Position numbers and translations under genes: made by a program. A DNA stretch of 37,572 nt from Escherichia phage SKA5. Location: the sequence record OR670062.1, one strand, 5' to 3'. How positions within the stretch are numbered: the stretch's first letter is position 1; the number at the start of each line of letters is the position of its first letter. A model generated the notes under the pieces. It saw only the letters and a program-made list of their open reading frames with translations, had not been told where the DNA came from and did not search any database. Shown piece by piece: positions 1 through 37,572 of the stretch.

Positions 1-1734
1 TCATAGAATTAAGAGATCATCGTCCGGATCAAGAGATGAGAGGAAATCGTCAGGTTCTTTGAGCATTGCCCGACCGATCGTCATAATCAGTGCAACCGCA
101 CCATCGATTTTGTTTTCCGCCTGCTCCTTGACGGGCTTCACTAAATCATCGTTACCAGGCATGTTTTTGCCGACCACATTGCCGATACACCAGGTCATGA
201 TGGGATTGCCGTCATGATGAAAGCGCCCCGATTCAATCGCTGCTTCCAGCTCTTTCATCGGGTCGGACATATTGGCGAAGTTCTGGACGATAGTAACGGG
301 ATTCAGGTCTTCATCAGCAAGGTCATGTGACAGCCCGGTCGCCCCGAAAGGGTCGATGGGTGACTCACTGACCGGGCTGATTTTGTTCGCCGCTTTGGCC
401 TCTTCGAGGATGTAGCGATAATCCACCTCTGCACCATCGGTAACGGTCAGGACGCCCATTTCCACCCATTTCTGAAAGCGTTCGGCTGTCCGGCGATCTT
501 CATTTTTCTCGACGCTGTACACCGTGTCATACGGTACCCAGAAGCGCGGGGCCACACTGTAGTAATGCGTTTTACCGTCAATCTCGCGGGTATAAAGTCG
601 CGCCATGCTGTTCATATCCAGCTTACGCGCCAGGTCAAAGGCCAGAATGCACGGTTGCCCCTCGAACTGCTCAAGGGTCAGTGATTTATCCTCGCAGCTC
701 TGCCAGCTCACCAGATTAAAATAAGCCGAACGCGCCGACACCCAGATATTGAGGTGTTTTGTTTTAAAGACGTTTGCCAGACGGGCGTTATTTTTCGCAC
801 GCTGCTGCTGACTTAACAAAAATTCGCGATAAACCGACACGCCAATATTTGGATTGGCTTTTTCCAGCACCTGCGGGTCGGTCCAGTCGTCACCTTCGTC
901 AACGGTATAGATGATCCCGAACAGTTCATCGTTAGGCACCGAGCCGTTGAGCATCTCGATGACTTCCCGCCGCTTGTCGTAGCACGGCCCCTCAATGTTG
1001 TACCCGGCGGTGGTGATGGCCCACATCAGTGGCTGACGTCGCGCCCCCATCCCGGTAAGCATCGTGGTGTAAAGCGCATCGGTGGCGTGCTCGTGATATT
1101 CATCCACCACCGCACAGTGGGGTGATGAACCATCACCGGGGTTACCGATCAGCGGTTCAAACCGCGCGCCATCCTCCGGACGGTTCATGTTTGAAGCGTT
1201 AACCTCAATCCCGAACGCTTCCGTCAGCATGGGTGTGCGTTTACACATCAGTCGCGCCGGGCGAAAGACTTCCCACGCCTGTTTCTCTGTCGTGGCACCG
1301 GAATACACTTCCGCGCCAAACTCGTTATCACAGGCAAAACAATACAGGGCAACACCGGCAGAGATTGCTGATTTGCCGTTCTTACGGGGGATTTCGGTAT
1401 ACACCTCCCGGAAGCGGCGCAACCGGGTGCCTTTATTGACCCAGCCAAACGCACAGCAGATCACAAATAGCTGCCACGGCTCCAGCGTGATGGGCATCCG
1501 TTTGAATGCCCACTCACCCTTGGTGTGCGGCAACAGCTGAATAAATTTCGCGGCCCGTTCAGCCAGGTCCTTGTCGAAGCGGTAACGAAACGACTTACTT
1601 TTTTCCGCCATCAGGTCATCAAGATGGCGCTGGCAGGCCTGAATCACAAACTGGCAGGCCACAATCTTTCCGCGCACGACATCACGGGCATACTGATTGG
1701 CAGCATTTACGTTGGGGTAAGATTTCCGGCTCAT
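1..1734 (-). CDS. phage terminase large subunit
   Basis: 577-aa ORF, complete (stop codon is the reverse complement of nt 1-3). Start overlaps the stop of the upstream small terminase (ATGA). Sits after an HNH gene and a P27-type small subunit, as in HK97-like packaging modules. Confidence 0.9.
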
Positions 1735-2225
1735 GATTCGATGATTTTCAGAAACGGGTTAGTGGCTTTCTTCTGCCCCGCCAGGCCAATCAGACGCTGG
1801 CGGCTGCTGGGGTCGAGTCCGAGCATTGCCCCCGTGCTGCTCATCTCGGACTCCTGTTCTTTTTTGGCGGTCAGCTCCGGATTTTTGACCATACCGCCCA
1901 TTGCACCGGTGATGGTGTTGCCCTGTCTGGCAATATTTTTCACGGCACGTCGCCAGAACTCGTAGGCCACGCACCACCGCTCAAGCACCGCGAGGTCAGT
2001 CACGCACAGCAGGCCCTGACCGCAGAGTTCTTTAGTTGTCAGTTGCCACATGATCGTAGCGAGAGGGAGATCTTCTTCAGCGAACCACTCCGGTGGCTCA
2101 ACACCTTTGATGGGCGTAAAAACAGGTTCATCTTTATTCAGGGCTCGCTTGCCGGGGTTTCCGGCCAGCGCCTTGCGCGCCGTTGGCTTGGGGCGACGCC
2201 CGGAACGCCCCGCCGTTCCAGCCAT
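1731..2225 (-). CDS. phage terminase small subunit (P27-family-like)
   Basis: Basic N-terminus [14 protein letters not shown] typical of P27-type small terminases. ATG at 2225 has AGGAG 8 nt upstream; the ORF-track start at 2234 is GTG without a Shine-Dalgarno (SD) sequence. Confidence 0.8.
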
Positions 2226-2350
2226 ATGCGGCACTCCTGGTTAAATTTCATTTTTCGCGGGTATAAAAAAACGATGGGGCGGGCAGTCCGGAAGACGTCA
2301 GGCTGCAGGGATTTGACCCGCCCCTCCCCTCAGACAGTTGAGAATTATTA

Positions 2351-2701
2351 TCACTTTAACCGTTCACGGGCCGTCTTCGCCTTATGACACGGCCAGCACA
2401 GACTCTGCAGATTACTGTCAGCATCAGTGCCGCCATGCGCTTTAGGGATGATGTGGTCAACAGTTTTCGCCTCACGCACCACACCAGCACGCAGACATAA
2501 TTGACACAGGCCTTTGTCACGCTTCAGAACACGCGCGCGGATACTGTCCCACTTCGAACCGTAGCCGCGCTGATGACGGGATTGTCCAGGTTTGTATTGC
2601 TTCCAGCCTTCGCTTTTGTGGCTTTCGCAGTAGCCTGAAGGGTCAGTAGTGGTATGGCGGCAGCCGCGAACACGGCAGGCTTTCGGGGTTCGTGGCGGCA
2701 T
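2351..2701 (-). CDS. HNH endonuclease (packaging-associated)
   Basis: 116 aa with Cys-rich zinc motifs and an HNH signature (DHIIPKAHGGTD...N...CWPCH). Lies immediately upstream of the terminase genes, as in HK97-like cos phages. Confidence 0.85.
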   Translation of the reverse strand: MPPRTPKACRVRGCRHTTTDPSGYCESHKSEGWKQYKPGQSRHQRGYGSKWDSIRARVLKRDKGLCQLCLRAGVVREAKTVDHIIPKAHGGTDADSNLQSLCWPCHKAKTARERLK

Positions 2702-35593: not shown

Positions 35594-35603
35594 GATGTTT
35601 CCT

Positions 35604-36206
35604 TTACGCGTTAAGAAGGGTCAGGACGCGTTCACGCGCCATACGTTGATTAATGGCTTTCTGTAGCGCGCCGCTGTTGCGCGCCTCCTGCCATGCTTTC
35701 ATGGAGCGAACAGCCGAGTCAGCCTCCTGATAGGCAGGATATGTCACAGGACTGACATCCAGCAGACGGGAAAAGCGGGTTATCTCGCGAATAACAACCC
35801 CGTCCTCATCCTGATACCACTCCTCGCCGTCACGGGCGACACGGAAAGCAAAAGATGACTGGTTAATATCTCCACGTTGCATCGGGGCCAGCACCAGATC
35901 ACGAATGGTCTGTGTCTCCGGAGCCTGGATGTCATAGCGTAATCCGCGCTCATCAACTGAAAGATTCAGCGTGCCTGCTGCACTACGCCCAAGAATAAAA
36001 TTAGGATCGTGGTTAAACAGTGCGCGGACATCATCACCAAGCACATCGTCAAAAGCGCCGGGCCGGATGATTTCGCGGAATGAACCGAATATCAGCTCAG
36101 AACGACAGTCAAACACCGATCCATAACCGATAATGTGCGCCGGGTTATCGTCATGCCTCTCAGCACGCACCTCACCGCTGTAACAACGGATTTCACGGTC
36201 ATTCAT
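35604..36206 (-). CDS. prohead protease (HK97 family)
   Basis: 200 aa from MNDREIRC with a GAGGGA SD; the ORF-track start is 36263. Lies between portal and major capsid. Confidence 0.8.
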   Translation of the reverse strand: MNDREIRCYSGEVRAERHDDNPAHIIGYGSVFDCRSELIFGSFREIIRPGAFDDVLGDDVRALFNHDPNFILGRSAAGTLNLSVDERGLRYDIQAPETQTIRDLVLAPMQRGDINQSSFAFRVARDGEEWYQDEDGVVIREITRFSRLLDVSPVTYPAYQEADSAVRSMKAWQEARNSGALQKAINQRMARERVLTLLNA

Positions 36207-37473
36207 TGGTTTTTCCCTCATCGTTTTTTGGGGGCTTAAAATCTCCTGCCGGGTTAGCAGCATTCACGCTTACCAGCATCTCGTCCAGCCCTTCAACCGG
36301 ATTCATATCCTCGAATGCGCGGGCCTCATTACGGCTCATCCATCCATCGGTAATAGCGAAGTGATAGAATTGCGCGCGCTCCTGCGGAGTTCCGCGTAAA
36401 AGCCCCGTCAGATTGAACCTGACGTAATACCCGGCGGCTAACTCAGCGCGGGTAAACAAGCGACGGTTAAGCTCCTGCTCCCAGTTCGTCACCCACGGCA
36501 TCATCGTGTAGCGGACAAACTGAATCGCCTGCGCAGAAATATTGGAGAAGGTGGCTTTTTCGAGGTCATTAATCATGTGCGCAGGAATATTGAAAATACC
36601 GGCGATCATTGAACGGTTCAGCTTCATCATGTCAATGATCTGAGCGTCAACTGGCGACACAGTCAGTGCCTTGTAATCCAGATCGGCTGGCAGCAGCATG
36701 GTTTTGTTTTCCTGGCGGCGTAACGCCTGCGATGCCTTCTGCCACTGATCTTTAAGCCAGCCCCAGCTTTCCTTATTGAGTCCGCTTTTAACGGATACTA
36801 TCCCCGCCGGACGGGCATTACCGCTGAAGAAGCTTTCTGTGTACTTCTGACCGCTCATCCCCATGCCTATTGTTTCGGCATGTTGCATAATCGGACTCAG
36901 CCCCATCTTCTGATTATTACCCAGCGCACGGATGTGGATCATATCGTCCGGACTGATCGCAAACGCCCCATATTCGTTGTACAAACCGTAGGTATATCGG
37001 CCACCAGTATTCATCAGCGTCGTTTCCCACGGCATACAGCAATCCAGGGATATGACTTCACCGCGACGATTACGTTTCACCCAGGTATACCCATTCCCCC
37101 AGCCAAGGATGTGACGTTGCTTCAGTTCGCGCCATTTGTAGCTGGTTTGCCAGGTATTGGGCTCATCATGAACCAGATAAAACGCCGGATGATCGCGTGC
37201 GGGTTCAACCTTCCCCTTGTGCCTGCGCATAACATGCAACGGCATCTGGGCAAGGCTGGAAGACAGGACATAGATACAGGAATACACCGCAGCCAGTTTC
37301 ATCGCAGTCTCAGGACTGACATAAACGTCTGCCCGGAACAGCCCATCAGTATCAACGGCATCCCCGGTTATCGGGGTGGAAGGATTCTCCAGTGATTTAC
37401 TTCTGAACAGAGCATCAAGCAGCACGCGTCCCCCTTCTGGCCATAGCCAGTGCGCCCACCAGCAGTAAAGCAC
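36199..37473 (-). CDS. portal protein (HK97 family)
   Basis: ORF-track boundaries. The likely true start is the GTG at 37425 (AGGGGGA SD), which overlaps the stop of the junction-spanning small ORF. Confidence 0.85.
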   Translation of the reverse strand: MLYCWWAHWLWPEGGRVLLDALFRSKSLENPSTPITGDAVDTDGLFRADVYVSPETAMKLAAVYSCIYVLSSSLAQMPLHVMRRHKGKVEPARDHPAFYLVHDEPNTWQTSYKWRELKQRHILGWGNGYTWVKRNRRGEVISLDCCMPWETTLMNTGGRYTYGLYNEYGAFAISPDDMIHIRALGNNQKMGLSPIMQHAETIGMGMSGQKYTESFFSGNARPAGIVSVKSGLNKESWGWLKDQWQKASQALRRQENKTMLLPADLDYKALTVSPVDAQIIDMMKLNRSMIAGIFNIPAHMINDLEKATFSNISAQAIQFVRYTMMPWVTNWEQELNRRLFTRAELAAGYYVRFNLTGLLRGTPQERAQFYHFAITDGWMSRNEARAFEDMNPVEGLDEMLVSVNAANPAGDFKPPKNDEGKTNE

Positions 37474-37572
37474 CGGACAAAATCAGAGCCGGAGCCATAC
37501 CAAACTGCAGGTAAACCCCGCACGTAAGCAGGCCAAAACCAGCCAGCCCGATAACATCAGCAATTAGTGATT
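37415..37572 (-). CDS. small hydrophobic protein, partial at window edge (continues at nt 4..1 if the sequence is circular)
   Basis: Reading the minus strand across the end-to-start junction gives a 53-aa ORF (MKSLIADVIGLAGFGLLTCGVYLQFGMAPALILSGALLLVGALAMARRGTRAA). Its ATG overlaps the terminase-large stop (ATGA) and its stop overlaps the portal start. Confidence 0.35.
   Translation of the reverse strand, partial: SLIADVIGLAGFGLLTCGVYLQFGMAPALILSGALLLVGALAMARRGTRAA

Follow-up and report, generated by a model that had tools for sequence, protein, structure and literature searches.

Sequence record OR670062.1, from Escherichia phage SKA5, holds 37,572 nucleotides (nt) of DNA written as one strand, and the analysis covered this whole stretch, referred to here as the window. 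Its packaging genes stand at opposite ends, with the gene for the large terminase subunit (terL) ending at nt 1 and the portal gene lying at 36199-37473, which raises the question of what molecule the window represents: a complete genome opened at this point, or a piece of a longer one. A preliminary description had proposed a packaging operon split between the two ends of a complete, circularly permuted mosaic phage genome. Our results indicate that the window is very probably one complete unit-length genome of an SfV-group myovirus that is temperate and packages from cos, written as an opened circle.

The split of the packaging operon was confirmed by Pfam domains as well as by coordinates. 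The terL open reading frame (ORF; 1..1734, minus strand) encodes 577 amino acids (aa) with the domains TerL_ATPase and TerL_nuclease, is 99.7% identical at the aa level to SfV orf2, and ends in a TGA stop codon that is the complement of window nt 3..1; at the other end the portal ORF (36199..37473, minus strand) was matched by Pfam Phage_portal (E 3e-98). When the last 300 and the first 300 nt of the window were joined, they aligned to SfV 2592-1993 at 99.2% identity with no gaps, and a prophage of Escherichia coli LR-46 was found to be continuous across the join, at 3462398|3462397. The exact 90-mer spanning the join (45 + 45 nt) was present uninterrupted in 36 IMG/VR contigs, SfV itself among them; it was not found in the GTDB representatives. 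On these comparisons the two ends of the window are true neighbours, and in this respect the proposal of a circularly permuted complete genome was borne out.

Joining the ends also restores a gene. On the minus strand an ORF runs from an ATG at nt 4..2 across the ends to a TGA at 37417..37415 and encodes 53 aa. The protein is 100% identical to that encoded by SfV 2289-2447, a stretch without annotation in the SfV records, and it was also matched over its entire length by phrog_7105 (E 3e-22), and by phrog_502 ('membrane protein') at E 6e-6; in LR-46 the ORF is annotated by PGAP (WP_000838374.1). Its conservation in the contiguous sequence of SfV, LR-46 and IMG/VR argues that the small ORF seen across the junction in the preliminary description is a real, conserved gene, the product of which is probably a small, hydrophobic membrane protein. 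The ORF is translationally coupled between terL and the portal gene. That description had also proposed ATGA-type overlaps on both of its sides; the overlap of its start with the terL stop is indeed ATGA, but the one with the portal gene is not, being 11 nt (GTGCTGCTTGA) if the portal starts at GTG 37425 or 59 nt if it starts at GTG 37473. The likely portal start is GTG 37425, which is preceded by AGAAGGGGGA and the equivalent of which is picked by PGAP in LR-46; GTG 37473 is only the start of the longest ORF and has no Shine-Dalgarno sequence. An ATG beside the stop codon of the junction ORF was rejected as a portal start, as it is not in the portal frame. The idea that the junction ORF is a homologue of YmfR was likewise ruled out (blastp against K-12 YmfR, E 0.057), and the YmfR of e14, which occupies the same position, is a positional analogue only, the ORF's own family being phrog_7105. 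A linear record that starts at window nt 1 would drop this 53-aa gene, and a gene split in this way by the linear record deserves annotation.

The packaging site itself lies well inside the window. For phage SfI the cohesive end has been experimentally determined as the 10 nt TGCCCGCCCC (PMC3636060), and the window carries its reverse complement, GGGGCGGGCA, as a closed cos site at 2276-2285 (minus strand). This 10-mer was found once in the window, between the gene for an HNH endonuclease (2351..2701, minus strand; Pfam HNH, 96% aa identity to SfV orf53) and that for the small terminase subunit (terS; 1731..2234, minus strand; P27/Terminase_4 family, Pfam PF05119, 99% aa identity to SfV orf1). 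The SfV record begins at its cohesive end, the 50 nt around the window's cos are identical to the start of that record, and the two extremes of that record (SfV 1 and 37074) fall on window 2292 and 2293, side by side here. By analogy with SfI and SfV, terminase and HNH would cut at this cos.

The attachment site (attP) is also closed. Alignment with K-12 dusA revealed a phage-borne fragment of the 5' end of that gene (129 nt, 42 codons; 18049..18177, minus strand), which carries attP; when the window was checked for host DNA, this piece of attP was all that was found. A four-way comparison, in which attB came from K-12 dusA, attP from the window and the remaining two sequences from either end of the LR-46 prophage, placed the crossover within the core ATGCTCGA (18074..18081, minus strand), the two prophage ends being exact reciprocal hybrids. 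Window position 18074 is also the start or end of several deposited phage records. The integration target is dusA and not thrW. A position of attP downstream of the integrase gene (int), as in lambda or SfV, was ruled out, since the core is upstream of int, within the dusA' fragment. The tyrosine integrase gene (18266..19363, plus strand; Pfam Phage_integrase) is 98.5% identical at the nt level to the int that adjoins the restored dusA in LR-46. That strain carries a single prophage of about 37 kb in dusA with the same layout as the window: on one side is an orphan dusA 5' end followed by yjbM, zur, dinF and lexA, and on the other int is followed by a restored dusA of full length, pspG and qorA. 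The comparison with this lysogen shows that the integrase recombines the attP core with the 5' end of host dusA and that the phage's own dusA fragment restores the host gene.

This arrangement matches that of the dusA-associated integrase elements, which integrate in the 5' end of dusA with int beside the gene (Farrugia et al., 2015; PMC4482086) and carry a replacement dusA 5' end, their att site lying in the conserved 5' region (PMC4482086). With them the window shares the dusA 5' integration site, the adjacency of int and dusA (seen in the LR-46 lysogen), the replacement fragment of 42 codons and the reciprocal att hybrids around ATGCTCGA. On both sides of the core, at 18010-18031 and 18209-18249, are ACAGGTTCCCA repeats and variant copies. 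Their count across the window is not above chance (5 found against 2.1 expected), and it is their placement alone that suggests them as candidate arm-type integrase sites.

Because cos and attP are both closed inside the window, it does not record virion ends and was not cut out of a lone integrated prophage, and the form represented is the circular one, whether excised, replicating or computationally circularised. The odds that a random cut would hit a terL boundary are only about 2 in 37572, and we therefore infer that the break point was set deliberately, most likely by software rotation of a circular contig to the lowest coordinate of terL, with no reverse-complementing. The length of the window is 37572 nt, against 37074 nt for SfV. 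Related SfV-like phages have been deposited as circular 'plasmid' records of 37.7-43.7 kb, which indicate that such phages are often recovered as circles by assemblers. That nt 1 and 37572 could instead be the true ends of a linear virion genome, packaged by a headful or terminal-repeat mechanism, is highly improbable: no terminal direct repeat was found in the window, the cos 10-mer is intact and identical to the cohesive end of SfI and SfV, and is accompanied by HNH and a P27-type small terminase, and ends at these positions would split a conserved gene, while nothing beyond the presentation of the sequence as linear speaks for it.

The 129-nt dusA-like stretch and the frameshift in one early gene could be taken to mean that the window was excerpted from a prophage that is integrated or defective, and so has flanking host DNA or lacks modules. 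This reading is likewise highly improbable: the dusA piece is the phage's own attP copy, with the differences from the host gene on either side of the core that are expected of an attP, and it lies in the middle of the window beside int rather than at an end; the window has no further host gene, and all of the SfV structural genes are there at 92-100% aa identity. It is also improbable that the window is a unit slice of a tandem prophage array, or of a replication concatemer, within a longer record. Such arrangements do have a precedent in the assembly of E. coli GPEC620-622, where at least 1.25 copies of a related dusA phage stand head to tail with an attP-type junction between them, and a slice of exactly one unit would look identical to the window; but the length is exactly one unit with no overlap, a cut on the last base of a gene is more in keeping with a circle rotated on purpose than with an excerpt, and even a slice of this kind would still contain one complete genome. 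In GPEC620-622 (NZ_CM142763.1, 4236176-4284154) the dusA-like stretch at the attP-type junction between copies is longer than that of the window, and the head-to-tail copies there may reflect either a tandem lysogen or an artefact of assembly.

Three points weigh against an opened circle of one complete phage genome. The physical circularity of the source molecule is beyond the reach of sequence alone; the exact mosaic was found only in this window among the phage, plasmid, complete E. coli and GTDB-representative collections; and the early gene for a 3'-5' exonuclease is frameshifted relative to two relatives, through sequencing error or decay. On balance the record is best treated as that of a circular, complete, SfV-like phage that integrates in dusA, with cos at 2276-2285 and attP at 18074-18081.

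Completeness is also evident from the gene content. Each module named in the preliminary description (immunity, replication, nin, Q, lysis, HNH-terS-terL, HK97-type head, contractile tail, invertible fibre segment, invertase, DinI, integrase and attP region) was checked and occurs a single time. The kinship with SfV and e14 that had been suspected was evident in BLASTn comparisons. About 24.5 kb of the window (65%) aligns with SfV, at roughly 96-98% nt identity and in the same gene order, in blocks at 1-2705, 5413-10026, 13027-14987, 22209-27598 and 28257-37572, and pieces of the replication region, ymfM, the baseplate and the fibre are 89-97% identical to e14 (97.5% for ymfM/oweE), accompanied by a Pin-type crossover motif. 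The lysis region (3349-5420) is not the SfV cassette and is 97.9% identical at the nt level to Salmonella phage 118970_sal3; the stretch with a Panacea gene pair, attP, int and DinI (16573-19775) is 98.5% identical to the lambdoid phage Lys8385Vzw and partly similar to mEp460. The best single relative found was the LR-46 prophage, with 31015 of the 37572 nt aligned, and no record covered at least 80% of the window among the phage, plasmid and complete E. coli collections. The exact combination of modules is therefore new, but every block is known: this is an ordinary SfV-type phage of E. coli/Shigella and not a new kind of element. Other known enterobacterial phages are the source of its lysis, immunity, int/att and fibre-switch modules and of several cargo genes. 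The window clearly illustrates how SfV, e14, lambdoid and Salmonella phages exchange modules, but has little significance beyond correct annotation.

With SfV itself (NC_003444 / U82619), which forms a group with SfI, SfII and SfIV, the window shares the packaging genes, the cos 10-mer, the HK97-type head, the Mu-type tail and baseplate, Q and most of the nin-like region. What it has in common with the group as a whole comprises HNH, the P27-type terS and terL, with cos between HNH and terS; an HK97-type portal, S78 protease and major capsid protein; a Mu-type sheath, tube, DNA-circulation protein and Gp44-48 baseplate; and divergent cI and cro with repeated operators, a CII-like protein and Q. 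SfV differs in having gtrA/B/V, which the window lacks, and in its thrW target and its attP downstream of int, whereas the window has dusA, an upstream attP and a different integrase. Moreover, the cI of SfV is only 35% identical to that of the window at the aa level, its lysis cassette is different, and it lacks the window's Pin-type invertible fibre segment, DinI, Panacea pair, GrlR-fold gene and 170-aa ORF in the tail operon. The serotype-converting Shigella phages (SfI/II/IV/V/X) carry gtrA-gtrB-gtr(type) by att and integrate at thrW, and the window does neither: the gtr region of SfV (17858-20390) has no match in it, and the invertible segment, invertase and DinI occupy that position.

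The LR-46 prophage (NZ_AP027537.1, about 3445.1-3482.3 kb) shares the overall architecture, integrase, att core, Panacea pair and immunity region, its aligned parts being mostly 95-98% identical, and it shows the integrated form expected of the window phage; being integrated it is opened at att, whereas the window is opened at terL. The two differ in the tape-measure and tube region, in part of the lysis region and in the content of the fibre segment, and the prophage lacks the GrlR-fold gene and the 170-aa ORF and has an extra DUF4145 gene. The cryptic K-12 prophage e14 is 89-97% identical at the nt level in its terL remnant, ymfM/oweE, and the ymfQ/jayE baseplate and fibre genes, and has the same crossover motif, TTCTCCCAAACCAA(G/C)GTTT, around an invertible fibre segment beside a serine invertase; it is, however, a 15-kb defective remnant integrated in icd, whereas the window is complete and has dusA as its target. 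In the lambdoid phages mEp460 and Lys8385Vzw the early region and attP/int/DinI are 97-98.5% identical to the window, and Lys8385Vzw has the Panacea pair, but their structural modules are unrelated, with no match to the head and tail genes of the window. Phage Mu shares the sheath, tube, DNA-circulation and GpP/Gp45-48 baseplate families and a Gin-type fibre switch, although the window has no transposase or transpositional replication and has lambdoid regulation, cos packaging and an HK97-type head instead. Taken over these comparisons, the window would be SfV-like in how it is built and packaged, lambda- or P22-like in how it is regulated, and like Mu or e14 in its fibre switch, which supports the suggestion that it combines lambdoid regulation with a contractile tail in the manner of SfV/e14-like phages.

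The fibre switch consists of a serine invertase gene of the Din/Pin family (19817..20380, minus strand; Pfam Resolvase and HTH_7), the product of which is 55.6% identical to e14 PinE at the aa level, and an invertible segment of about 1.8 kb (20452..22284) with genes on both strands, recognised from its inverted repeat. The segment is bounded by inverted 15-nt cores, TTGGTTTGGGAGAAG, within 20-nt arms at 20447-20466 and 22270-22289. On its minus strand it carries a fibre C-terminus and an assembly protein (21483-22284), and on its plus strand an alternative C-terminus (20457-20918) with its own assembly protein (20918-21511). The right-hand crossover site lies inside the fibre gene, and a flip would join the constant 101 N-terminal residues in frame to the second C-terminus, as encoded at 20467-20918. 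Both orientations were found in IMG/VR: contig L124 contains window 20452-22284 flipped at 100% identity between flanks that match at 100% and 97%, and the 45-mer predicted for the flipped junction was present in 28 contigs, compared with 11 for that of the window orientation. The system shares with the Din-family switches (Gin/Cin/Pin/Hin) a small serine recombinase that combines a resolvase domain with a helix-turn-helix (HTH) at its C-terminus, inverted crossover sites of which one lies within the fibre gene, in-frame alternative C-termini, and the occurrence of both orientations. The invertase would thus flip the 1.8-kb segment and so swap the tail-fibre C-terminus together with its assembly protein, giving the two orientations seen in nature. 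The exact att, cos and inversion sites ease the tracking of this phage in lysogens.

The remaining structural genes lie on the minus strand and follow SfV closely. The portal gene (36199-37425, with the longest ORF to 37473; Phage_portal) is followed by those for the S78 prohead protease (35604-36263; Pfam Peptidase_S78) and the HK97-type major capsid protein (34364-35593; Pfam Phage_capsid), the three products being 99.8-100% identical in aa sequence to SfV orf3-5. Head-tail joining genes occupy 32517..34330 and were assigned from the SfV annotation (92-99% aa identity to orf6-9). The contractile sheath, tail tube, tail assembly protein and tape measure are encoded at 28259..32354 (Pfam PhageMin_Tail, Tail_tube and Phage_sheath; 98-100% aa identity to SfV orf11-14). 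The tail fibre (21926-22573) and a Mu-type baseplate occupy 21926..27574, identified by Pfam and at 98-100% aa identity to SfV orf15-20; the baseplate set recognised by Pfam comprises Gp48, Baseplate_J/gp47, GP46, Gp45, GpP and a DNA-circulation N-like protein.

The lysis genes, also on the minus strand and identified by Pfam, encode Rz1/LysC (3207-3542), an Rz-like protein (3361-3753), a GH19 endolysin (3750-4364) and two holins (4364-4645 and 4632-5018). At higher coordinates on the same strand lie the gene for the antiterminator Q (5506..6300; Pfam Antiterm, E 3e-54; 98.9% aa identity to SfV Q) and a nin-like region (6272..9954) in which Pfam recognised DUF968/HNHc, KilA-N, RusA, a protein with a LexA DNA-binding domain, a Dam methylase and a PerC-like protein, at 86-99% aa identity to SfV orf40-45. 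A Pfam scan of 9951..11821 (minus strand) gave HTH_36, DnaD_N (weak) and Phage_CP76, in a stretch encoding a replication initiator (9951-10892), a YmfM-like protein (10902-11240) and a CII/YmfL-like protein (11237-11821). Beyond it are cro (11849-12046, minus strand; Pfam P22_Cro) and, divergently, cI (12142-12795, plus strand; Pfam HTH_3 and Peptidase_S24). An 18-bp palindrome, ATGTAGGATAnCCAACAT, is present in five copies, three between cI and cro (12079-12143) and two downstream of cI (12858-12910), and a GC-rich hairpin follows cI at 12816-12838. The palindromes look like OR and OL operators of the window's immunity type. From homology and anatomy, the cI/Cro/CII switch with these repeated operators would govern lysogeny, and Q would govern the late genes.

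The early-left operon (13029..16570, plus strand) encodes a 5'-deoxynucleotidase-like protein, a DUF551 protein, a hypothetical protein, the 3'-5' exonuclease and a PrtN-family protein that is a candidate excision factor (16262-16570, plus strand). The exonuclease gene (15676-16252, plus strand) is present as two ORFs, with a 1-nt insertion and a substitution at about 16057-16060 relative to the intact genes of GPEC620-622 and LR-46, and is either a pseudogene or the product of a sequencing error. A DinI-like protein is encoded at 19425..19673 (plus strand; Pfam DinI). No tRNA genes, and no Rfam families above threshold, were found in the window.

Several cargo genes lie at the boundaries of these modules. 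A protein of 106 aa with the GrlR fold (2794..3114, minus strand) matched PDB 2ovs/4kt5 over its full length (E 1.6e-10) and also phrog_2483, its Pfam GrlR score being 26.7 against a cut-off of 26.8. The gene sits as an insert between Rz1 and HNH/cos, a position at which neither SfV nor LR-46 has it. A role as a regulator of the type III secretion system of the enterocyte effacement locus (LEE) is unlikely, as the closest phage homologues of the protein, at 49-57% aa identity, are in Klebsiella, Vibrio and Acinetobacter phages, whose hosts are not known to have that system. In the tail operon, an ORF of low GC content (about 43%) encodes 170 aa with an N-terminal signal peptide (27665..28177, minus strand; phrog_8976, E 3e-107). 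It is inserted between the tape-measure and DNA-circulation genes, where SfV lacks it (gap at 27599-28256) and the GPEC620-622 prophage has an unrelated ORF, and among deposited phages it was found only in Pantoea phage AH07, at 41% identity.

Beside attP, a gene for a Panacea-domain antitoxin of 190 aa (17247-17819, minus strand; Pfam SocA_Panacea, E 2e-19) overlaps by 4 nt a downstream gene for a partner of 139 aa (16831-17250, minus strand). PanAT pairs consist of a Panacea-domain antitoxin in a two-gene operon with a toxin (PMC8832971), and by analogy the pair beside attP may be a toxin-antitoxin pair with an undescribed toxin. The partner had no match in Pfam, NCBIfam, PADLOC or PDB, and neither it nor the 170-aa protein had sequence relatives in PDB. 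The PADLOC defence-system models matched none of the five cargo genes tested, and gave two weak hits only, on the exonuclease fragment and the KilA-N gene. It is possible, if rather doubtful, that at least one of the boundary cargo genes (those for the 139-aa partner, the 170-aa, the GrlR-fold and the 53-aa proteins) serves exclusion or has an anti-phage role not yet characterised; foremost among them is the 139-aa Panacea partner, which could represent an undescribed toxin family. Its sole family match was phrog_19071, and homologues were found in Yersinia, Vibrio, Pseudomonas and Klebsiella phages (42-53% aa identity) and in a Helicobacter-associated phage record (35%); in Lys8385Vzw the aa identity is 100%.

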